Shown one piece after another: positions 35,820-45,427 of a DNA stretch of 63,718 nucleotides. The translations under genes and the position numbers were made by a program. A model generated the notes under the pieces. It searched no databases. It was not told the DNA's origin and saw only the letters and a list, made by a program, of their open reading frames with translations. Source of the DNA: a virus. Its lineage: Duplodnaviria; Caudoviricetes. Within the stretch, counting starts at the first letter, position 1. Each line of letters starts with the position of its first letter. The stretch is from positions 1 through 63,718 of the IMG/VR virus record IMGVR_UViG_3300048855_000181, one strand, 5' to 3'.

Positions 35820-36365
35820 CATCGATTGCGACACCTCAACCGGATCTGTACCGAAATGCGAGTGCGTGATGGTGGTTTTGCGATCCGTCGGCACAGCTGA
35901 AACCCTCCTTGAGCCGGGTGTCATGTCGAATGTTTACCTGCTGCAACTTCCTACGCTATCGCCGTGTCCTCGATCGTCAGCCGCGCCACCACCATATGCT
36001 TCAAGAGCCCTCGCCGGGCATGTCGGTCCGAAGCAGGTGCCGCGGGCTACCCTTGTCGGACAGCAAATGCTATATTACCCAGCTCAAAGAATGGCGCCGA
36101 GCAACAAATCCAATCATCTGGATCGGCGGCAGCAGGCATAAAGCGACATAAGTAAAGGGCGCTCCGCTAATACCTACTATGGTGGACGCGACAGCTGTGC
36201 AGCGTGACTTGCGGGAGGCTGTGATGACGTTTGCAGCGTGACCGACCATAACCGGTGGTATTAGGACATCGTGACGGGCGACGATTTCCGAGGCGTTCCC
36301 AAAGAGAATGGGTAGCCGGCACGCCGAAAGTCGGAATGAGTCCGGCACCAAGGGGAGGATTGTCA

Positions 36366-38183
36366 ATGTTGTTTCCTGGCCATTATTGGAGCCCGGCCGC
36401 GGCACTCATTTTTGCGTTGATAACTACAGGAGCGGCAGCGAGCTGCCCGGAATGTCAGGACGAGAGATGTGCTTTTGGGGTAGCATGCGTTTGTGTTCCA
36501 CGTATCGGCTGCAAGCTTTCCATTCCAATACCTGGCACGACTCCTCCTGGTCAGTTCCTTCCCCTCTCGCCCGTCCCTTTGCCGCCGTATATCCAAAAGG
36601 AGGTCGACAAGGGAGGCGGTGAAATCTCTCGCGTAGTGGAGAAGCTCGGCCAAGATACGTTCATTACCATTAAAACTGCTGCCGGCGATACAATTCGCAC
36701 GTTGGAAAAGGCTGGCGGCGACGCCATTAACACCGTCGAGAAAGCGGGCAGCGACACTGTCGAGACAACCACCAAGGCAGCCGGTGATGTAACCGCGACC
36801 TATAAAAAGGCATGGCGTGACGTTGACGATCAAAGCAAACGCAGTTTCAAGGACGCAGTCGATGCCGGAAAAGCAGCAGCCAACTTTGTCAAGAACCAGG
36901 CCGAGGCTCATCAGGAAGCTTGGAAGAACGCTGAAAAGCGCCTGCGAGACGGAAAGGTGGTCGATTCCATGTGGGGTTTGGCGACCGATCCCGCGAAATC
37001 TGGCGAAAAGAACTTTGCCAAGGCTACCCAGGAGAGCGACCTGCTCAACACGGCAGCTGCAACCGCAGCGTCAGTCTATGGTGGCCCGGCAGGTGCAGCA
37101 GCCTATGCTGCCTGGTCCACCTACCGGCGCACCGGCGATGCGAACCTGGCGTTGCGTGCCGGTATAACGGCGGGTGTTACATCGCAGGTTGGCGGTTCGG
37201 TGGCTAAGTTACCGGCCGGCACTGCTGGTGAAGTTGTCAAGAAGGCAGCGCTGTCTGGCGCGGCGGGTGGCATCGCAGTAGCGGCCGCAGGCGGTGACGA
37301 GCAAGCGATCAAGGACGGCTTTCTCAAATCTGCCGGAGCTGTGCTGGTTCAAGGAGGCACTGACAGACTTAAGGCGTACTCGCCCGAAGCCAAGGATGCA
37401 TATGATACCGTGCAGTGCTTATCCGCCCGTGATGTGGACTGCTTGTCGAACACCACCTGGGCACGAAATGCCAAAGGCAAGATTCTCTATGACGATAAGG
37501 GAAAACCCAGGATCGATACCAGCAAACTCGATCCAAATCAGTACGTGGGAAAATGGACGGGTCTTGATCCGAAATCAATTGAGGCAATGAAGAACGCTTA
37601 CGTCACACAGGTTTCCAAGCTGCCTGATACGGAAGCAATTCCGCTCATGAAAAACCAGTGGGTGCTGACTTGGAACCTCGGCAAGGAGCAAAACATACCG
37701 CACAACAATCCGGCTGTCGTGCTTACCTATGTGGGGAAAGACCCGCCCTTTAATTCCACAGTGGAGTACGGTGGAGCGGTCAAGAAATCTCCGAAGTCCG
37801 GCACCGGCAAAAAACAGACCGCTGCAATCGACCCGTCGCAGGTTCCCGGCACAGGAAACAGGGGGGCAGCAAGAAAGGGTATGACCTCGAAAGGTGTCCA
37901 AATGTTCACAGTTGAACTTCGAGAGATACCTGGCGCCATTCGGTCATATAAGAAATTGCCCAACGGTTCGTGGACCAGAGTGGCTTCAGAAACCGGGATA
38001 GTCACCCAATGGCGGACAGTGGGGCGAATATCGCTAAATGGGTGCAATGGAACGACGCTTCTCCTATTGCCCAGTGAGCAATATGAGGTGTTCGTTCCCG
38101 ATCGCGGCTGTCAAGCCATGGTGGCGTGGAGCCGCATCGGCGGAGCCTGGTTTGTTATGGGTACGATTAAAAGCATAAGGTGA
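36366..38183 (+). CDS. large exported protein of unknown function (605 aa)
   Basis: GGGGAGG RBS, signal peptide, Cys-rich N-terminus, 11-aa repeats, Gly/Ala-rich hydrophobic core. Confidence 0.8.
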   Translation: MLFPGHYWSPAAALIFALITTGAAASCPECQDERCAFGVACVCVPRIGCKLSIPIPGTTPPGQFLPLSPVPLPPYIQKEVDKGGGEISRVVEKLGQDTFITIKTAAGDTIRTLEKAGGDAINTVEKAGSDTVETTTKAAGDVTATYKKAWRDVDDQSKRSFKDAVDAGKAAANFVKNQAEAHQEAWKNAEKRLRDGKVVDSMWGLATDPAKSGEKNFAKATQESDLLNTAAATAASVYGGPAGAAAYAAWSTYRRTGDANLALRAGITAGVTSQVGGSVAKLPAGTAGEVVKKAALSGAAGGIAVAAAGGDEQAIKDGFLKSAGAVLVQGGTDRLKAYSPEAKDAYDTVQCLSARDVDCLSNTTWARNAKGKILYDDKGKPRIDTSKLDPNQYVGKWTGLDPKSIEAMKNAYVTQVSKLPDTEAIPLMKNQWVLTWNLGKEQNIPHNNPAVVLTYVGKDPPFNSTVEYGGAVKKSPKSGTGKKQTAAIDPSQVPGTGNRGAARKGMTSKGVQMFTVELREIPGAIRSYKKLPNGSWTRVASETGIVTQWRTVGRISLNGCNGTTLLLLPSEQYEVFVPDRGCQAMVAWSRIGGAWFVMGTIKSIR

Positions 38184-38483
38184 AGTCTGATCCCCGCACA
38201 CTTTCCTGTGCGCGCCTTCGCAACGGTCAGTGCCGGATCACGATCCGCGCCGTCGAAGCGCACTCACAGTGCTTAGAGCCCATGCTCTGAATTGAGCAGC
38301 GGTCCAATTCGCTGGCTTTTCGACCTCTCGGAAGGCTGATTTCCTGAAACTTGGCATAGTGACCCGTGGCTGTTGCACTGATTTGCAAACTGACCACTCA
38401 TAAATTTCGTTATTTCTGTTACAAGTCAACAGACTTTCTGTTGTATATAATAGGTGTTTTTATCTGGATTGAATTTTTCACTT

Positions 38484-38493
38484 CGCACGCCGG
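38484..38493 (-). other. candidate cos (cohesive end) site
   Basis: GC-rich GGGA-CCGGCGTGCG followed by an A-rich tract on the minus strand, in a ~550-nt non-coding gap between divergent modules; HNH plus HK97-type terminase implies cos packaging. Confidence 0.35.
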
Positions 38494-38680
38494 TCCCGGG
38501 GCCAGGTCGAGAAAATTAACTCGAAGGGCGGTAGAGGTCCAGCATTATCAGGGGATTGTCTGATTTTTGTCGATCATCGAGCGACTTGGCACAGTCCTTG
38601 CAACCTTGCGCGTGTTCAATGGTTTGCATTGCTCTTTGGTGAGCTGCAGCAATTATTATTTCTAAACCAACATTTTTTCT

Positions 38681-38709
38681 GTTGACTATGGCTGCGGGTG
38701 ATGCAATGT
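38681..38709 (+). promoter_or_regulatory. sigma70-type promoter of the 38.7-45.4 kb operon
   Basis: GTTGAC-N17-CAATGT; predicted +1 at the first motif hairpin. Confidence 0.6.
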
Positions 38710-38749
38710 TGTGAGCGTCAAATGTGACACAGTGAAAGGACACAGACTT

Positions 38750-38974
38750 ATGAAAGCCCTGATATTCTTACTTCTGCTCAACCAGCCTAACGGCGCACAG
38801 ACTGAGATCATAGTAGCGCGCGATCTGACTTTCGAGCAATGCGACCTGATGCAACGCAATGTCTGGAATGCTGGTGCTGAGACCATAGGACGCGATGCTG
38901 AGGGCCCTATCCCTGCCTATGACGCCGCATGCGTCTATCCCGTCCAGCTCGTCAAGGTGAACGTCAAGCAATAG
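38750..38974 (+). CDS. small exported/hypothetical protein
   Basis: AAAGGA RBS; hydrophobic N-terminus; two Cys. Confidence 0.7.
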   Translation: MKALIFLLLLNQPNGAQTEIIVARDLTFEQCDLMQRNVWNAGAETIGRDAEGPIPAYDAACVYPVQLVKVNVKQ

Positions 38975-39041
38975 CTTGTTATTGGCCGCTCTTGTGGCGG
39001 CCTATCGCTGGCAATTGTGCCAAACACGAAAGGAACCTGAA

Positions 39042-39176
39042 ATGTCCAAACATCCTAGTGCACGTGAAACCTTCGCAAACCGTATCGAGGGACGAGTCCG
39101 CCGTGATGATCGCCGCCAGGCACGCAATGCAAAGCGCGCTTTCCTGCTGGACGGTCTCACCATCAAGCCTTGGTAA
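39042..39176 (+). CDS. small basic protein (44 aa)
   Basis: Motif plus AAAGGA RBS; MSKHPSARETFANRIEGRVRRDDRRQARNAKRAF. Confidence 0.65.
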   Translation: MSKHPSARETFANRIEGRVRRDDRRQARNAKRAFLLDGLTIKPW

Positions 39177-39267
39177 TCCTGCAATCGCTCTTTCATGGCC
39201 GCGTCCCTCGGCCATGCGACGGCAATTAGCCGAAACGCCAATTGTGGCAAACAAAAAGGAACTGAAA

Positions 39268-40134
39268 ATGACTGTTTACACTCACACCGCACGCTTTGAT
39301 TCCGCTCGCGCCATGACTGAGGATGAATTGCGCAAAGCCGCGCCGTCAATCTTCGCAATGACCGCACATGAAAGCCGGTCTGAACGTTTCCAGCCTATCC
39401 CCACAATCGAAGTTTTGCGCGGTCTTATGGCTGAAGGCTTCATGCCAGTAGGCGCAAAGCAGTCGCGGACTCGTGATGTCGGCAAGGCTGACTTCACAAA
39501 GCATCTCATCCGCCTACGTCGTGTAGATGACGGCAAAACCTACAACGTCGGCGATACGGTTTGCGAAATCCTCCTCAAAAACGCAAACGACGGAACGTCG
39601 GCTTATGATCTGATGGCCGGTCTTTTCCGCGTCCGTTGCCTGAATTCCTTGGTGGCACAGACAAGCACCATTGACAGCGTGAAGGTCCGCCATAGTGGCG
39701 ATGTCGGCGCAAAGGTCATTGAAGGGACGTACCGAGTCCTGAACGAGGCGGAAAAAACGCTGGCAGCTCCGGCCGATTGGGGAACCGTCAATCTCAACAA
39801 AGATGAACGCATGATCTTTGCCGAGTCGGCGCACATGGTTCGCTTTGCTGATGCGGAAGGCGAGATCGCAACGCCTATCAAGCCCGAACAACTCCTCATC
39901 CCTCGCCGATATGATGACCGCGCCGACGACCTTTGGACAACGTTCAATGTTGCGCAAGAAAATATCATCCGTGGCGGTTTGCGCGGTGTCGCTCGTGACG
40001 ATGAAGGCCGCCGTATTCGCCGGGTTTCAACTCGCGCGGTAAACGGTATCGATCAGGATATCAAACTCAATAAAGCGCTTTGGGTGCTTGCTGAACGCAT
40101 GGCTGAACTGAAGGGCATTAAGGCCGCCGCCTAG
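39268..40134 (+). CDS. DUF932 domain protein
   Basis: APSIFA..AHESRSERF.PIPT, F.KHLIRLR, N.NDGTSAY.L.AGLFR..CLN.LV, LN.ALW.LAE. Confidence 0.9.
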   Translation: MTVYTHTARFDSARAMTEDELRKAAPSIFAMTAHESRSERFQPIPTIEVLRGLMAEGFMPVGAKQSRTRDVGKADFTKHLIRLRRVDDGKTYNVGDTVCEILLKNANDGTSAYDLMAGLFRVRCLNSLVAQTSTIDSVKVRHSGDVGAKVIEGTYRVLNEAEKTLAAPADWGTVNLNKDERMIFAESAHMVRFADAEGEIATPIKPEQLLIPRRYDDRADDLWTTFNVAQENIIRGGLRGVARDDEGRRIRRVSTRAVNGIDQDIKLNKALWVLAERMAELKGIKAAA

Positions 40135-40196
40135 CCCTTGGTTCCACGGGTGGCGCTTGTCGCCACCCTATCCCCACGATTTGAAAGAAGGACGCC

Positions 40197-41741
40197 ATGA
40201 ATCAGATTATGCCACGCGCGACGATTGAAGATATCGTCAACTATCGAAATGAAGCCTTGCGCCTATATGAAGTCGCCTATGGCGTCATTGGACAAGCCAG
40301 CGCTGCAGTGAAGGAAGCTGCAGAAATGGCTCGCCGCTGTTACCCCGGCATCAATGCTTATAATCACAGCCAGGCGGATGAGGTGAAGGCCTTTGACCGC
40401 GCGGTATGTATGCCAGATCGCGAGCGCTATTTGCGGACCGCGCGCCGCTTGATCGATTTGAACGCATGGGCTTGGATTATCGAGCGCACAGACCTTGAAC
40501 GGCTGATGGATAAGCAGGCAAAAGACCAGTTGCGCGCGCAAATGGCCTATATCCCTGAAAAGGTCGACTATCACACGCAACAGCTCATCAATGGCGATGA
40601 AATCGAAAAGGGCATGCCACCGCTTAGCGTTGACAACATCATGGCGACGTTGGAACAGTTTGCCTTAGATGCCGACACGATATTCCGACGCGGCATTGCA
40701 AATGCTTTCTCAAAGCTGGACCGTCGTTTCCGCTCACATGATGGTTTCAAGGTAGGTTCGCGGGTTATTCTCACACGTGCATTCAATGATTGGGGTAGTC
40801 TCGATTATGGCTATGTGCGCGATACTCTGATCGATATCGAACGCGTTTTTGCGGTCCTTGATGGCAAACCCGAAGCGTCTTTCACTTCAGCGCTATACGC
40901 TCTTGAGCATGACAGACGCGGAACGCATGGCCGCCGGCAAAGCGAGGTCGAGACCGAATATTTTAAGATTCGCGGCTTCATGAATGGCAACGCTCATCTT
41001 TGGTTTGAGCGCAAAGACCTAGTCGAGAAAGTGAATAAGCTTCTCGCTGAATACTATGGCGAGGTGATAGGCGATGGACAGCAAGCCGAAGAAGACCCTT
41101 TTGCCAACATCAAGAATGTGCCCGCAAAGCGCTATGGTTTCTATCCGACTCCGGACGGCGCTTGCAGTGCATTGTTTCGCGATATCTCACTGCTTCAGCG
41201 TGCGGATCAGCCGCAACTCGCAATTCTTGAACCAAGCGCGGGAACTGGCAATTTGGCGCGGCGCTGTGTCAATACCGTTAAAGAGCTGGACAACTGGTCA
41301 GGTGGTCGCAAGGAATATCAGGACCGGTTCCGCTTCGATAATCAAGTCGACTGCGTAGAAATTCAGCCACATCTCGCCGCTGATTTGGACGCTGAAGGCA
41401 TATATCGCCGGGTTTACAATCAAGATTTCTTGCAGCTCCAGCCAGCGACAACTGGTCTCTATGACAAGGTTATCATGAACCCGCCTTTTGACCGCGAACG
41501 CGACATTGACCACGTCATGCACGCAATGAAATTCCTGAAGGATGACGGCTGCCTTATCGCGATCATGTCAGCCGGTACGGAATTCAGAGAGACCAAAAAA
41601 TCGAAGGCATTCCGCGAGTATATGGACAAATTGAATGCGAAATGGACCGACTTGCCCGCCGGTTCATTCTCCGAAGTTGGAACGCATGTGAATACCATAT
41701 TCGTGAAGGTCTTCAAGAATGGCGGTCAACGCCGCTACTAA
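40197..41741 (+). CDS. DUF4942 domain plus N6-adenine DNA methyltransferase
   Basis: F.NGN.HL.F (DUF4942), FYPTP, LEPSAGTG, VIMNPPF, F.E.GT.V.T. Confidence 0.88.
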   Translation: MNQIMPRATIEDIVNYRNEALRLYEVAYGVIGQASAAVKEAAEMARRCYPGINAYNHSQADEVKAFDRAVCMPDRERYLRTARRLIDLNAWAWIIERTDLERLMDKQAKDQLRAQMAYIPEKVDYHTQQLINGDEIEKGMPPLSVDNIMATLEQFALDADTIFRRGIANAFSKLDRRFRSHDGFKVGSRVILTRAFNDWGSLDYGYVRDTLIDIERVFAVLDGKPEASFTSALYALEHDRRGTHGRRQSEVETEYFKIRGFMNGNAHLWFERKDLVEKVNKLLAEYYGEVIGDGQQAEEDPFANIKNVPAKRYGFYPTPDGACSALFRDISLLQRADQPQLAILEPSAGTGNLARRCVNTVKELDNWSGGRKEYQDRFRFDNQVDCVEIQPHLAADLDAEGIYRRVYNQDFLQLQPATTGLYDKVIMNPPFDRERDIDHVMHAMKFLKDDGCLIAIMSAGTEFRETKKSKAFREYMDKLNAKWTDLPAGSFSEVGTHVNTIFVKVFKNGGQRRY

Positions 41742-41784
41742 TTCCACCCGTCAATTGTGACAAATAGAAAAGGACTATCAGACC

Positions 41785-42948
41785 ATGACTAATTCCGCTC
41801 TCGCAGTTTCCACCCGTTCAAGTGCCGTCATCGATCGCACAGCAATGACTCGCGCCATCGATGTCGTGGCCAATGTGATTGAACGCCGTAACACCGTTCC
41901 AATCTTGAGCAATGTTCGAATCCTTGGTGATGCCGGGCGCGCTTTCATTACTGGCACGGATTTGGATATCGAGCTCACAGTCGGCATTGATGCCGCGATT
42001 GATGCTGATTTCGGTTTGACCGTTCCGGCGCATCTCCTGAAAGACCTACTGAAGAAAGCTACCAAAAGCGAATACGTGGCATTTACAGCGCCTTTGCAGG
42101 ATGGTGACAGCAATTCGACCATAGTCGATTTCGAGCGCGTCAAGTACGATCTGCAAGCGCTTCCAATCGCTGACTTTCCTGATTTGGCTGGACCGGACGC
42201 CGCAACGTCGAAGCGCTTCACATTGACCGGCGCGGCCTTCTGGAATGCGCTTGACGGCGTGATGAACGCCATCAGCTCCGAAGAGACGCGCTATTATCTC
42301 AACGGTATCTATATGCACCATGTCGACGGTCAATTTCTGATGGTGGCGACTGATGGCCATCGGCTTTACTTGCAGGATTTGGGACCGGTCGACGGCACAA
42401 AGGATATGCCAGGCGTTATCTTGCCACGGCGAACCGTATCCCTCCTGCACAAGCTCCTGAAGGGCAAGGCTTGTCCGTCATCGGTCGATATCGAGCTGAC
42501 CGAAACAAGAGTCCGCATTCAATTCGATGATGTCACAGTAACCAGCAAGTTCATTGATGGCAGTTTTCCGGACTATCGCCGCGTTATTCCTTCACAGAAT
42601 GACAAGCGTGCCACCATTGATGCTGAAGCGTTCCTTGAAGCCGTCCGTGCCGTTCAGCTCATATCCAGCGAGAAAGGCCGCGCCGTCCGCTATGATTTCA
42701 GCGCCGGTCGATGCCGACTCGTCGTCGTCAATCCTGATCAAGGCCGCGCCGAAAGCACAATCGCAGCTGACTATTCGGACGGTGATTTAGATATTGGTTT
42801 CAATGCCGGTTACATGATCGATGCCGTCTCAACTGCTGCGACAGACGGTGGATCAATTTCCCTCCTGCTTAGTGATGCCGGTTCCCCTGCAATACTCACT
42901 GGATCACGGGAAGGCTGGAAAGCCGTCTTGATGCCAATGCGCGTCTAG
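41785..42948 (+). CDS. dnaN: DNA polymerase III beta clamp (phage-borne)
   Basis: RRNTVPILSNV, TGTDLDI, ETRYYLNG, VATDGHRL, FPDYRRVIP, VLMPMRV. Confidence 0.95.
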   Translation: MTNSALAVSTRSSAVIDRTAMTRAIDVVANVIERRNTVPILSNVRILGDAGRAFITGTDLDIELTVGIDAAIDADFGLTVPAHLLKDLLKKATKSEYVAFTAPLQDGDSNSTIVDFERVKYDLQALPIADFPDLAGPDAATSKRFTLTGAAFWNALDGVMNAISSEETRYYLNGIYMHHVDGQFLMVATDGHRLYLQDLGPVDGTKDMPGVILPRRTVSLLHKLLKGKACPSSVDIELTETRVRIQFDDVTVTSKFIDGSFPDYRRVIPSQNDKRATIDAEAFLEAVRAVQLISSEKGRAVRYDFSAGRCRLVVVNPDQGRAESTIAADYSDGDLDIGFNAGYMIDAVSTAATDGGSISLLLSDAGSPAILTGSREGWKAVLMPMRV

Positions 42949-43021
42949 GACGCTTCCACCAGCCAAGGGCGCGCGAATGCGCCCTACTCTCTCAATTGTG
43001 AGACATCGAAAGGATAAAGAA

Positions 43022-43234
43022 ATGACACTGACAGACGAATATCGAGACAACATCCGCGCCGCGCTGGCCATCTATCGCGACAAAGGCCCTATGACGCTGG
43101 TCGAATGGTATATCTGCAAGGCTCTTGGCGTTGCCAATAGAGCGAAGAACCGCCGGGCGAAGTCCGCTTGCCTTTCCCTCATCAATCGTGCTCGTCGTCT
43201 CGCTGCAGCACAGCGCTCGCAGGTGGCAGCGTGA
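43022..43234 (+). CDS. hypothetical basic protein (70 aa)
   Basis: Motif plus AAAGGA RBS. Confidence 0.7.
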   Translation: MTLTDEYRDNIRAALAIYRDKGPMTLVEWYICKALGVANRAKNRRAKSACLSLINRARRLAAAQRSQVAA

Positions 43235-43851
43235 CTGCAACCAGAGAAGATCGCCAGCCAAAGAGCTATACGCCTCTTCAGATGGAAGCCGCGCTTTGTG
43301 CATGGGAACAGATGATGGAATGGCGTTTCAACCCAGCCCAACAGGCCGAGGTTGAGAAAGAGCCGGAGAAGTTCTTAGCGCATCAGATACATATGAATGA
43401 GCAGTGGGAAGGCATCGGCTACGCTGGAATGCGCTCGGTTGCCACGCAGGCTGGGTCCATTGCACTTGCTGTGTATGACCTGATGGAATCCCAAGGCGCC
43501 GAATTCAACTGTGCATATGATTGGGAATTCATACCGGCTGTGCTCGCTCTACTGGATTGGAAGGCTCTGTGCGATGACAACCAGTATGGCGCGGCGGCCT
43601 ATAAGCCGAACATTTCCGTCATCCTAAAGGACATGATGGAGACAATGGCGGACGATTTCGACGCCACCCCCAAGAAATCTGCTTGGCTAGCACAGGCCAG
43701 GTATGCGGCTCAGAAGCTGTTCGCCTATTCGGACCTCATCAGCGACCACGAAGACCGAGCCGATGCTGCGTTTGAAGCCGATGAAGACCCCGCTGAATTC
43801 GCCGAGTGGCTAGGCGACAAGTACGACCTCACCCGCGTCCACGCCTACTGA
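43231..43851 (+). CDS. hypothetical protein (206 aa)
   Basis: GTGA coupling; AGGTGG RBS. Confidence 0.7.
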   Translation: MTATREDRQPKSYTPLQMEAALCAWEQMMEWRFNPAQQAEVEKEPEKFLAHQIHMNEQWEGIGYAGMRSVATQAGSIALAVYDLMESQGAEFNCAYDWEFIPAVLALLDWKALCDDNQYGAAAYKPNISVILKDMMETMADDFDATPKKSAWLAQARYAAQKLFAYSDLISDHEDRADAAFEADEDPAEFAEWLGDKYDLTRVHAY

Positions 43852-43881
43852 ACTGGCAATCGTGCCGACAAGAAAGGACTG

Positions 43882-44130
43882 ATGATGATTGACAACATGG
43901 ACCGCGTTGGATGGGCCGCCACCGCAATTGAAGCATTCACGACAGAATGCCGGATGGATGGTGAGGACGATCAGACGAAGGCGAAAGACCTCATCACCAA
44001 CCTTTGTCACTTCCTGCGACTGAGTGTCGGCATGACGGCCGAAGAAGCTGCGAGCGTCGCCACCGCTGCGATCAATATGTTCGAGCAGGAAGTCGCCGAG
44101 GACGAAGACGGGACCGACGACGAGGATTAA
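43882..44130 (+). CDS. small acidic protein
   Basis: Motif plus RBS; DLITNL.H pattern; very acidic C-terminus. Confidence 0.75.
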   Translation: MMIDNMDRVGWAATAIEAFTTECRMDGEDDQTKAKDLITNLCHFLRLSVGMTAEEAASVATAAINMFEQEVAEDEDGTDDED

Positions 44131-44172
44131 TCAGACCACCCGGCAATTGTGCCAGAACAGAAGGAGATAGAC

Positions 44173-44358
44173 ATGAAAATCGTCAAGATTGCTGCACTTA
44201 TTGGAACCGCCAGCCTTGCCGGTTGCGGCACCTATAACAGCTGGTCGCCACGCGAGGCGAGTTATGAACCAGCGGAACGCAGTTGTGCTTCGGGCTATTA
44301 CAACTGCGAGCTCCGCACCAGCGGCGAAGCTGGACGACGCGGGCCGGGCAGACGATGA
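44173..44358 (+). CDS. small lipoprotein
   Basis: MKIVKIAALIGTASLAG-C lipobox; motif plus AAGGAG RBS. Confidence 0.7.
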   Translation: MKIVKIAALIGTASLAGCGTYNSWSPREASYEPAERSCASGYYNCELRTSGEAGRRGPGRR

Positions 44359-44494
44359 CTCGGGCATTCATTCAGGAGGTCGACCGCATTATCGTGGTCG
44401 AAGATTGAGGATATCGCGCAGCTCGTGGCATCCTCTATCGCGCGCTCGTCGTGTTTTGCATCGCAGTCGCCATCGCACTTTACAGGAGGTCATC

Positions 44495-44680
44495 TTGAGC
44501 AAGGGAATAGACACAGTGCCGTGCGGACGTTGCCAAAAACTGTTCGATCATCGCCTCGTAGATGCGATCATGCGGGACGCAGATGGCAATCACTGTTCAG
44601 ACGAGGCTTTTTGCCAACCATGTTTTGAATTAGTCAAGATTATCGCCGATGACCAGTGGCGCCCGCTTGGAGAGTTTTGA
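44495..44680 (+). CDS. small zinc-finger protein
   Basis: AGGAGG RBS, TTG start; CGRC...CQPC. Confidence 0.55.
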   Translation: MSKGIDTVPCGRCQKLFDHRLVDAIMRDADGNHCSDEAFCQPCFELVKIIADDQWRPLGEF

Positions 44681-44744
44681 ATAAATCGATAATCGCATAG
44701 CGCTCGACACGATTGCCAAGTGTGGCATAGAGAAAGGAACAATT

Positions 44745-45107
44745 ATGCTCCAGCATACTGAACAGCAGCCATCACGAGGACAAAACGTGTCGAGACGATT
44801 CGAATACGAGCGCATGAAGCCAAATGATTTCCGCGACGAGCTCGCGGCGATCGACATGCCATCCAAAGCCTTCGCTCGAATCTTCGGTGTCAATTCCAAC
44901 GTCGTCGATCGATGGATCAAGGGTGATCAGGACATACCAGCCTGGGTTTACGTCGCCCTGTCCCTCATCCGACTACCTGAAGGCTTCTCTACGGCACGCC
45001 AAGCAGCGGCACAGCACATCAAGAAGGACAATCTCCGTCCGGAACTAGGTGATTATCCCTACCTGTCGTCACAGGACCAAGACTTTTTGGAGGGTGACGA
45101 GGAATGA
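44745..45107 (+). CDS. HTH DNA-binding protein
   Basis: M.PNDFR..L......FARIFGV....V.RW..G...IP (XRE-like); motif plus RBS. Confidence 0.75.
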   Translation: MLQHTEQQPSRGQNVSRRFEYERMKPNDFRDELAAIDMPSKAFARIFGVNSNVVDRWIKGDQDIPAWVYVALSLIRLPEGFSTARQAAAQHIKKDNLRPELGDYPYLSSQDQDFLEGDEE

Positions 45108-45427
45108 GCCTGCACATCACAGAATTCGTTCGCGGCTTTGCTGGTGCTGTCCTGCTTCGTATCGAAGATTTGGTTACCCATGGCGTACCTTTCGATCAGG
45201 CAAAGCAGCAGGCGATAAAGGAACATGCATCGCAGCTAAAGGGCGCCGGCACACACAACGCCATGGCAATCAGGATGGTTGTGGAAGGCTTGCGGTTCAC
45301 TGATATGAGCGGCGAGACGATCAAAGCCCGTGAGGCATGGAGGCTGCATCAGATCGAGCAGCACCGCGGCCGGTCGGCCGGGTTCCTCGAAAAGATTTTA
45401 TTCAGATTTAGCGGATACTCATTCTAA
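45104..45427 (+). CDS. hypothetical protein
   Basis: ATGA coupling. Confidence 0.65.
   Translation: MSLHITEFVRGFAGAVLLRIEDLVTHGVPFDQAKQQAIKEHASQLKGAGTHNAMAIRMVVEGLRFTDMSGETIKAREAWRLHQIEQHRGRSAGFLEKILFRFSGYSF

Follow-up and report, generated by a model that had tools for sequence, protein, structure and literature searches.

In lambdoid phages, the hairpin boxB in the RNA of the nut site is recognised by the arginine-rich phage peptide N; boxA lies adjacent to it, and one or two such sites per operon stand before the terminators that are read through. The RegA protein of phage T4 represses many early messenger RNAs (mRNAs) at sites that are unstructured, A/U-rich and overlap the start codon, and work on ompA of Escherichia coli established that a 5'-terminal stem-loop stabilises mRNA. 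The start-associated sequence (SAS) of mycobacteriophages is a linear, GGGATAGGAGCCC-like sequence of 13 base pairs (bp) that contains the Shine-Dalgarno (SD) sequence and lies 3-7 bp from the start, and for the inverted repeats of the extended start-associated sequence (ESAS) the authors found, in the part of their account that treats them, little support for RNA pairing (PMC3203893). The early promoters of phages N4 and LUZ7 are described, in the relevant parts of three accounts, as DNA hairpins with stems of 4-7 bp, in which those bases that are not conserved have only to remain paired, transcription starting 11-14 nucleotides (nt) from the hairpin centre (PMC4496689, PMC9163698, PMC3715699). 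A further arrangement is the PeSL cassette, which in the portion of the published description drawn on here combines a sigma-70 early promoter with a terminator-like stem-loop (PMC4122927). Here we analysed a 63,718-base record of a tailed virus (IMGVR_UViG_3300048855_000181; the whole of it is called the window below), in which eight genes of one operon are each preceded by a short hairpin placed just upstream of the SD, and we found that this hairpin is, on the evidence of its sequence, probably a new RNA control signal.

All eight hairpins listed in the initial annotation were present as written, its positions 39009, 42990 and 44714 denoting three of these sites with one more pair included. 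They are given below with the open reading frame (ORF) that each precedes, its length in amino acids (aa), and the score under a covariance model (R1) trained on 39 copies, the window's eight among them.

38717-38728, + strand: hairpin 1, GTC-AAATGT-GAC, with the SD AAAGGA 6 nt on, before a 74-aa ORF at 38750-38974; 25.4 bits
39010-39021, + strand: hairpin 2, (T)GGC-AATTGT-GCC(A), before the 44-aa arginine-rich ORF; 26.7 bits
39237-39248, + strand: hairpin 3, GCC-AATTGT-GGC, before the DUF932 gene at 39268-40134; 30.5 bits
41750-41761, + strand: hairpin 4, GTC-AATTGT-GAC, before the gene of a DnaN-like sliding clamp at 41785-42948; 31.8 bits
42991-43002, + strand: hairpin 5, (T)CTC-AATTGT-GAG(A), before a 70-aa ORF at 43022-43234; 29.5 bits
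43855-43866, + strand: hairpin 6, (T)GGC-AATCGT-GCC(G), before an 82-aa ORF at 43882-44130; 27.0 bits
44142-44153, + strand: hairpin 7, GGC-AATTGT-GCC, before a 61-aa ORF at 44173-44358; 33.2 bits
44715-44726, + strand: hairpin 8, (T)GCC-AAGTGT-GGC(A), before the 120-aa gene of a helix-turn-helix (HTH)-like protein at 44745-45107; 27.2 bits

The bare core CAANNGTG is frequent, and the window has it 23 times on its + strand and 22 times on its - strand. Requiring two Watson-Crick flanking pairs reduced these numbers to 9 and 1, and requiring in addition a ribosome-binding site (RBS) 3-9 nt downstream reduced them to 8 and 0. Across 200 dinucleotide-preserving shuffles of the window the hairpin alone averaged 2.2 and the hairpin with RBS 0.015, with a maximum of 1, so the pattern NNC-AANNGT-GNN plus RBS, for which a comparison with shuffled sequence had been proposed, stands at 8 observed against 0.015 expected. 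When R1 was run on both strands it returned exactly these eight sites, at 25.4-33.2 bits and all on the + strand within 38.7-44.8 kb. Because the next match scored only 11.8 bits, we take the window to hold no further copies, and the earlier observation that the hairpin does not precede late or replication genes was borne out and extended to its other genes. Rfam 15, to which a comparison had likewise been suggested, offered no matching family: the whole window had 0 matches at the gathering score, and at E<=1 the stretch 38300-45300 gave a single chance microRNA match on the - strand (21.7 bits, where the gathering score is 87).

Local RNA folds placed the element within the minimum-free-energy structure in 8/8 cases, with a stem of 4-5 bp and a loop of 4 nt. 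Over the 39 copies the four pairs were formed in 99.4% of cells, against 75.5% with shuffled 3' partners (0/500 shuffles reached the observed value); the covariation score was 0.652 against 0.217 in shuffles, and sliding the partner by 1-3 columns lowered the pairing to 21-59%. The outer stem bases, which had been said to change yet stay paired, did so, being complementary in 38/39 and 39/39 copies: one outer pair is GC in 26, CG in 11 and AU in 1, the other CG in 18, GC in 13 and UA in 8, and the two show 12 and 21 double changes. The closing C-G pair is invariant, as had been claimed, but the claim fails for the first letter of the AA-N-N-GT loop, which is A in 27 and G in 12 of the copies. 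As this base pairs with the last U of the loop, forming an inner pair that is AU in 27/39, GU in 12/39 and never unpaired, a 4-bp stem with an ANNG tetraloop describes the element better. Five letters of the core (C7, A9, G12, U13 and G14) are identical in 39/39 copies although the stems differ, and the two middle loop letters vary freely in relatives. Pairing was equally evident among 46 + strand sites selected by core, SD and start only, from six hairpin-bearing loci (including L145 of the N4-like phage G001 described below): the first flanking pair was formed in 44 of them and the second in 43, and two of the 46 are evident false positives.

The strong covariation over 39 copies upholds the earlier proposal that the element acts as a folded single strand rather than as an operator in double-stranded DNA, since flanks that switch identity yet remain complementary are left unexplained by a reader of the double strand. 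A G-U inner pair becomes an A-C mismatch on the other strand, which indicates that it is the coding strand that folds; folding as coding-strand RNA is supported, at the level of sequence comparison, by this inner pair together with the fixed site before the SD. The fixed loop letters alongside the turnover of the stems point to selection on the loop letters, most simply by a sequence-specific reader. Folding of the coding strand is also what would be seen if the hairpin formed in the non-template DNA of the transcription bubble, pausing RNA polymerase or recruiting a factor at every cistron as the hairpin of ops does for RfaH; G-T pairs would be tolerated there and 12 nt is the size of the exposed strand. 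We regard this as highly improbable, since ops sites occur once per operon and not before every gene, the sequence is unlike the ops consensus, and a search of the window for a NusG paralogue gave no match.

The recurrence that had been anticipated in prophages of Rhizobiales was found, four other elements carrying multiple copies. These canonical carriers besides the window comprise two Mesorhizobium genomes, one Rhizobiales isolate and one viral contig, with 4-12 copies each.

L037, a viral contig (= G004): 10 copies
L035, the same element as L191, in Mesorhizobium sp. LSJC280B00: 5 copies
L150, in Mesorhizobium sp. ANAO-SY3R2: 4 copies
L200, in a Rhizobiales isolate: 12 copies

The core in these relatives reads C-R-A-N-N-G-U-G; G can take the first place of its loop (CGATTGTG), and AGGAG or GGAGA can serve as the SD. 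Relatives were gathered through DUF932 (147 loci, 67 viral and 80 from named genomes), and R1 was run over 177 loci (2.3 Mb, both strands). It gave 37 matches, all on the operon strand, of which 35 fell within the known carriers, and it revealed no further carrier among the 177 loci. The other two matches are a single 22-bit site at 85-117 of L083 and 86-118 of L084 (AATCAATTGTGATA, then AAAAGG), viral contigs of more than 200 kb with a low GC content (33%), in which the match is probably due to chance. Relatives of the DnaN-like protein in viral contigs (29 loci, 28-43% identity) had no multi-copy motif and a single copy in L009, and Rhizobium phage RHph_TM3_3_3, retrieved by a methyltransferase match, was without the motif. 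A pattern scan of viral contigs yielded 23 stretches; multiple copies were present only in the contig of L037 and in G001, and the other 20 stretches held single matches, consistent with chance. In 121 genomes from the family to which G005 belongs (one unpublished member of this set was used for no statement) R1 gave mostly isolated matches of 19-27 bits, including 11 new loci (L229-L239) with neither a cluster nor an SD/start context, and in three host genomes the GC-flanked motif pattern was not clearly above the reversed control.

The carriers are scattered in a quick tree of DUF932 (high-scoring segment pairs of >=250 aa and >=55% identity, identical sequences merged, 75 of 81 rows), requiring 5 changes of which at least 2 are forced by well-supported branches, and most DUF932 relatives, some at 81-82% identity, lack a copy. 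Only seven ORF clusters were common to at least 3 of six sources, and three of these overlap DUF932; the families shared across carriers are DUF932, the methyltransferase, the 82-aa ORF, the HTH protein and the small basic ORF. This scatter, and the fact that carriers share the cassette but few genes, would suit a mobile unit of hairpin, spacer and SD that is kept mainly as a homology joint for swapping early genes, with regulation secondary. Three elements (L037, L200 and G001) each have their own longer conserved flank around the core, and there is a precedent in the PeSL cassettes of T4-type phages, as far as the part of that account concerned with them goes (PMC4122927). A shared core of about 12-30 nt is nevertheless short for homologous recombination, and compensatory stems with a fixed distance to the SD imply selection on structure and position beyond mere identity, so exchange as the main function appears improbable.

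Repeated modules of other kinds were seen in two groups of DUF932 loci. In Pseudomonas (L214, L216, L217 and L221, including plasmid pUTK21) a nested module of about 60 nt around GCGGCGGCAACCGC, then GAAGGAG, stands before several genes, and in Bosea lupini (L183/L034) the repeated module is GGCCCTGGCAGGGGCC, then CCGGAGA, again before several genes. Hairpin cassettes ahead of the SD may be a general trait of DUF932 operons.

The first copy of the window follows a promoter-like site that was read by eye.

38682-38710, + strand: sigma-70-like promoter TTGACT-17 nt-AATGTT, ending 6 nt before hairpin 1

The first hairpin of L200 starts 8 nt after TTGACA-16-TAGATT and that of L037 starts 7 nt after TTGACA-18-TATGGT, each the only promoter-like site in 1 kb. 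With such boxes 6-8 nt ahead in three elements, the first hairpin is predicted to lie at the 5' end of a transcript made by the host polymerase. Near the boxes of the window, the repeat TTTCTGTT(A/G) was noticed by eye three times, starting near 38414, 38437 and 38675 (about 38414-38444 and 38675-38683), and in L200 the TTGACA box is likewise surrounded by a pair of repeats, CCAAACGGCAT. The TTTCTGTT(A/G) repeats may be repressor operators.

Internal copies lie 3 to about 60 nt past the upstream stop codon, with distances as small as 3-8 nt, and 3 nt at hairpin 6, and some of them follow a GC-rich hairpin that has no U tract.

38984-39002, + strand: GC-rich intergenic hairpin without U tract, 7 nt upstream of hairpin 2
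39194-39216, 40148-40168 and 42967-42985, + strand: similar GC-rich hairpins, all but that at 40148-40168 covered by the local folds

None of these four was terminator-like in a terminator and promoter scan, and the scan of the window called no terminator before any internal copy. The close stop codons and the lack of called terminators fit a polycistronic mRNA and disfavour a promoter for every gene. The latter is one form of the proposal that the element is a site in double-stranded DNA, either the operator of a dimeric regulator or a host -10 box repeated at each gene. In its favour, the core of many copies contains the palindrome CAATTG, RATTGT keeps A2 and T6 of TATAAT, both invariant, and a CTACGA-like box lies 14-18 nt upstream of 5/10 copies in L037. 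Against it, no conserved upstream box (-35/-10) precedes the internal copies of the window, promoter-like sites in the operon number 7 against a shuffle mean of 8.0, constitutive promoters at every gene would defeat lysogenic silencing, and such a reader has no need of flanks that change while complementarity is kept (in 38/39 and 39/39 copies). A double-stranded site is thus very unlikely.

The same layout bears on a second account, in which the mRNA hairpin has no dedicated reader and serves as a structural cap that shields the 5' ends of the transcript and of endonucleolytically processed cistrons against 5'-end-dependent decay, and may also insulate the SD against structure upstream. This account, which we hold to be possible though doubtful, is favoured by the first copy falling at the predicted +1 in three elements (judged from the promoter-like boxes of L200 and L037 and, in the window, by eye), and by the GC-rich hairpins without U tract just upstream of several internal copies, which is the layout expected if the mRNA were cleaved between the two, one product then ending in a 3' hairpin and the other beginning with a 5' hairpin. 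No conserved cleavage motif was found upstream of the hairpins, the processing is wholly conjectural and the stabilising rule comes from ompA of E. coli; a purely thermodynamic cap needs no invariant letters, and five are kept in 39/39 copies despite the turnover of the stems.

Hairpins closely resembling those of the window were found in G001, a viral record of 63,334 bases that was retrieved through the motif pattern only. It has six copies of the form stem-CAAT(G/T/A)GTG-stem, the stems covarying, then AAAGGA, each after a GC hairpin with a T tract.

G001:C1 200-3100 (L145): left-end small genes preceded by the hairpins
G001:C1 4613-5623, 13306-14364 and 50427-50771: further features of this record

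No protein was common to G001 and the window in the parts that were fetched. G001 has three matches to RNA_pol (PF00940), one inside a frame of 4253 aa, and its polymerases are remote from known phage polymerases (best tblastn identity 25-31%). As these matches are a signature of N4-like phages, the hairpins of G001 are most simply explained, and probably to be regarded, as hairpin promoters of a virion polymerase; their likeness to the prophage hairpins may reflect either convergence or a shared reader. Together with the resemblance to the early promoters of N4 and LUZ7, with their stems of 4-7 bp and free but paired bases, this raises the question whether the prophage elements too are DNA hairpins extruded from supercoiled DNA and read by the polymerase of the phage itself or of a superinfecting N4-like phage. 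Much speaks against it. No PF00940 match was obtained in the window at E<=10 (the control genomes of that search were matchless as well, and the same family was found in G001), and its largest ORFs encode a tape measure and a tail fibre. The elements with canonical copies are either integrated as proviruses or chromosomal, a host-type promoter lies ahead of the first copy, and internal copies are not preceded by terminators, some standing 3 nt past a stop codon. In 12/39 copies the template strand would have A opposite C at the inner pair, and the loops have 4 nt, not 3. We therefore consider a promoter of this type quite improbable. The set of readings first offered for the element was incomplete in this respect, having left out both the DNA-hairpin promoter and a plain 5'-end stabiliser.

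Among the proteins encoded by the operon, the arginine-rich one is the most plausible reader.

39042-39176, + strand: gene for the 44-aa arginine-rich peptide with the block RRDDRRQARNAKRAFL, candidate hairpin reader

Members of this family have 34-63 aa and a conserved block, RR(D/E)xRRxxRxxK(R/H)AxL, and synonymous codon differences across the block indicate coding constraint. Searching with five members by tblastn matched 5/147 DUF932 loci, all of them carriers; a profile of the peptide gave matches at the element of G005, G002 and G007 (E values of 1e-16 to 1e-20). The peptide gene is itself preceded by the hairpin in all five carriers. The peptide belongs to no family of Pfam or PHROG, a word-based search of a large protein set found only 3 close homologues, and a locus search by peptide alignment gave 26 pattern matches, none of which was confirmed. 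The suggestion in the initial annotation that a basic 44-aa protein acts in trans thus gained support from homologues confined to hairpin-carrying loci, and is weakened by two elements considered below (G081 and G001). Its other candidates fared worse: ProQ/FinO is absent from G002, a carrier provirus that is 100% complete, none of the 147 DUF932 loci, whether carrier or not, has a homologue of the 70-aa protein, and the HTH protein encoded at 44745 occurs in only 2/4 of the other canonical carriers (L191/L035 and L150). ProQ was rejected as the reader, being missing from G002, G004 and G001 alike. Homologues of the methyltransferase are found in 6 non-carriers as well.

Taken together, we favour a reading in which an mRNA hairpin marks the 5' edge of each translation start and is read sequence-specifically; our confidence in it is limited, at roughly 40%. 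In the unit, an A-N-N-G tetraloop is closed by an inner pair, A-U or G-U, beneath which come the invariant C-G pair and two outer pairs that covary; 6-7 nt of A-rich spacer then lead to the SD AAAGGA and the start codon, so that the hairpin forms the 5' edge of the initiation region of each independently initiating cistron. Folding would take place in RNA and not in DNA, and a sequence-specific trans factor would read the loop letters, the likeliest candidate being the arginine-rich peptide of 34-63 aa that is encoded in the same operon. Its binding would tune the translation, the stability of the mRNA, or both, for all marked cistrons jointly; the switching of the operon as a whole, put forward in the initial annotation, is conjectural. 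Since the first copy is predicted at the 5' end of the transcript, protection of that end may form part of the mechanism; internal copies could contribute to it only after processing. The marked genes (DUF932, an orphan adenine methyltransferase, the clamp and small ORFs) resemble sets for establishment and anti-defence, and the signal may accordingly time the first minutes after entry or induction. A bolder version, which we offer as speculation and think unlikely, is that the peptide and its hairpin of 12-14 nt form an operon-wide post-transcriptional switch, in which recognition of the N/boxB type is used in the manner of RegA at each RBS, its own included, the cassettes serving also as joints by which early and anti-defence genes are exchanged among Rhizobiales prophages.

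Several observations weigh against the favoured reading. A 4-bp hairpin is marginal in stability, and for 7/8 copies the fold was no more stable than in shuffles, the eighth being marginal (z from -1.79 to +0.90). The -10 box of the window has 3/6 consensus positions and fails a consensus scan. At the same place, DUF932 loci that are no carriers show different small hairpins (CCGC-UUC-GCGG, CCG-UUUU-CGG), with an A-rich run and the SD.

40 nt upstream of DUF932 in L148, L149, L151, L153, L156, L194, L205 and others: CCGC-TTC-GCGG, CCGC-TAC-GCGG or CCG-TTTT-CGG, then an A-rich run and AGGAG

These unrelated hairpins hint at a generic structural role without a dedicated reader, and their distance to the SD and their loops, some of them UUC- or UUCG-like, also count in favour of the structural cap. 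A variant of the loop, C-R-A-N-N-A-U-G, is present in five copies (CGC-CAANNATG-GCA) before the genes of a further element, its methyltransferase included, which the R1 scan of the 121 genomes had returned as a cluster.

G081:C1:2093000-2110000, - strand: chromosomal element L240, with homologues of the window's methyltransferase (61%), DnaN (40%), g7 and HTH protein

The peptide was not detectable in this relative, nor was it found in G001 despite the six canonical-looking copies there. Variant or look-alike hairpins without the peptide again suit the cap, and they weaken the link between peptide and hairpin, the peptide not being needed for every such hairpin; as short peptides are hard to detect, its absence is a weak statement. 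Finally, the peptide gene adjoins DUF932 in 4/5 carriers, and its presence alongside the hairpin could mean no more than that the two are linked in one type of operon.

The window is a whole virus record that IMG/VR classes as a provirus, about 85% complete; it is a temperate, siphovirus-like prophage from soil Rhizobiales, with the hairpin-bearing operon being of the repressor type and putatively early. Among sequencing runs, two soil-metagenome DNA runs matched the stretch, one of them possibly its source, and no RNA run did. This operon lies on the + strand and encodes the 74-aa ORF, the basic 44-aa ORF, DUF932, a DUF4942-methyltransferase, the DnaN-like clamp, small ORFs that belong to no family and the HTH-like protein. 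The late genes (terminase, tape measure and a J-like tail fibre) are on the - strand, and elsewhere the window encodes a DnaB helicase, RecT, an exonuclease and the ProQ/FinO protein. Between the late genes and the operon lies an ORF of 642 aa (36255-38183, + strand) with a hydrophobic N-terminal stretch and repeated KAGGD/TVEK-like segments, which has no match in Pfam or PHROG and may be a secreted or surface moron protein. It was considered as a polymerase and rejected, for it has no family and its appearance is that of a secreted protein with repeats.

It had been stated that translationally coupled genes of the operon lack the hairpin. This is true of the overlapping, coupled genes that start at 43231 and 45104, but two uncoupled genes are likewise without an intact copy, each having its own SD: the methyltransferase gene, which starts at 40197 after an intergenic gap of 62 nt, and the TTG-start ORF at 44497. 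The latter ORF (44497-44680, + strand) is small and Cys-rich (CGRC...C...CQPC), with the look of a zinc ribbon and AGGAGG as its SD. Two imperfect sequences were found in the operon.

40175-40183, + strand: remnant CACGATTTG upstream of the methyltransferase gene, before its SD, with no R1 match
39220-39232, + strand: further, degenerate copy CGGC-AATTA-GCCG, 4 nt ahead of hairpin 3, a hairpin in the local fold

The former may be a decayed hairpin copy, and the latter scores under the noise level of R1; together they suggest a turnover of copies.

No description of the element was found in the literature, of which supplementary material lay outside the coverage, so that its absence there is unproven. 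Operon-wide cis signals tied to gene starts are known from few phage groups and their mechanism has been demonstrated in none, SAS being still unexplained. The present hairpin offers advantages for such a study, namely compensatory evidence, a target of 12-14 nt, culturable hosts (two Mesorhizobium strains) and one small candidate reader that can be synthesized, and it makes the role of start-associated repeats directly testable. If the peptide binds, the two would make a very compact orthogonal RNA-peptide module.

Compared with the systems outlined at the beginning, the motif differs from the consensus of ops, and the window lacks the NusG paralogue (PF02357) that would correspond to RfaH. 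As with RegA, one phage factor could act at many early initiation regions, its own included, but the element is structured and lies upstream of the SD, unlike the sites of RegA. With boxB it shares the conserved loop and the covarying stem of a small RNA hairpin, an arginine-rich peptide that co-occurs as a plausible reader, and a first copy near the early promoter. Unlike the nut sites, it is repeated 4-12 times in an operon, each time linked to an SD, and the intergenic GC hairpins have no U tracts and were not called terminators; no boxA-like word was enriched in the upstream 60-mers (GCTCT or CGCTC in 9/39, at scattered positions), and the peptide of 34-63 aa has no detectable homology. 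With the hairpin promoters of N4, as two accounts describe them, it shares short early-region hairpins, free but paired stem bases and a fixed distance to a downstream start (PMC4496689, PMC9163698); it differs in that canonical carriers are proviruses without a phage RNA polymerase, a host-type promoter comes first, the loops have 4 nt and pairing is favoured on the non-template strand. The PeSL of T4-type phages, in the portion of the account that concerns their placement, are likewise repeated intergenic regulatory cassettes between small, variable early genes (PMC4122927), unlike which the internal copies here have no promoter boxes.

The closest system by behaviour is that of SAS and ESAS, and the earlier judgement that the element is analogous to, and distinct from, the mycobacteriophage sequences agrees with our analysis, since sequence, position and structure differ. 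In the part of the Cluster K account that describes them, SAS and ESAS are short repeats in one orientation in the non-structural half of a temperate siphovirus genome, directly upstream of many unrelated gene starts and absent from the host, with a suspected but unproven role in translation initiation (PMC3203893). The element described here is set 6-7 nt upstream of the SD, is a hairpin of 12-14 nt with strong compensatory change, and is unrelated in sequence and in host phylum. We place it with the start-associated phage repeats and the small hairpin operators, and as a structure it is well supported.

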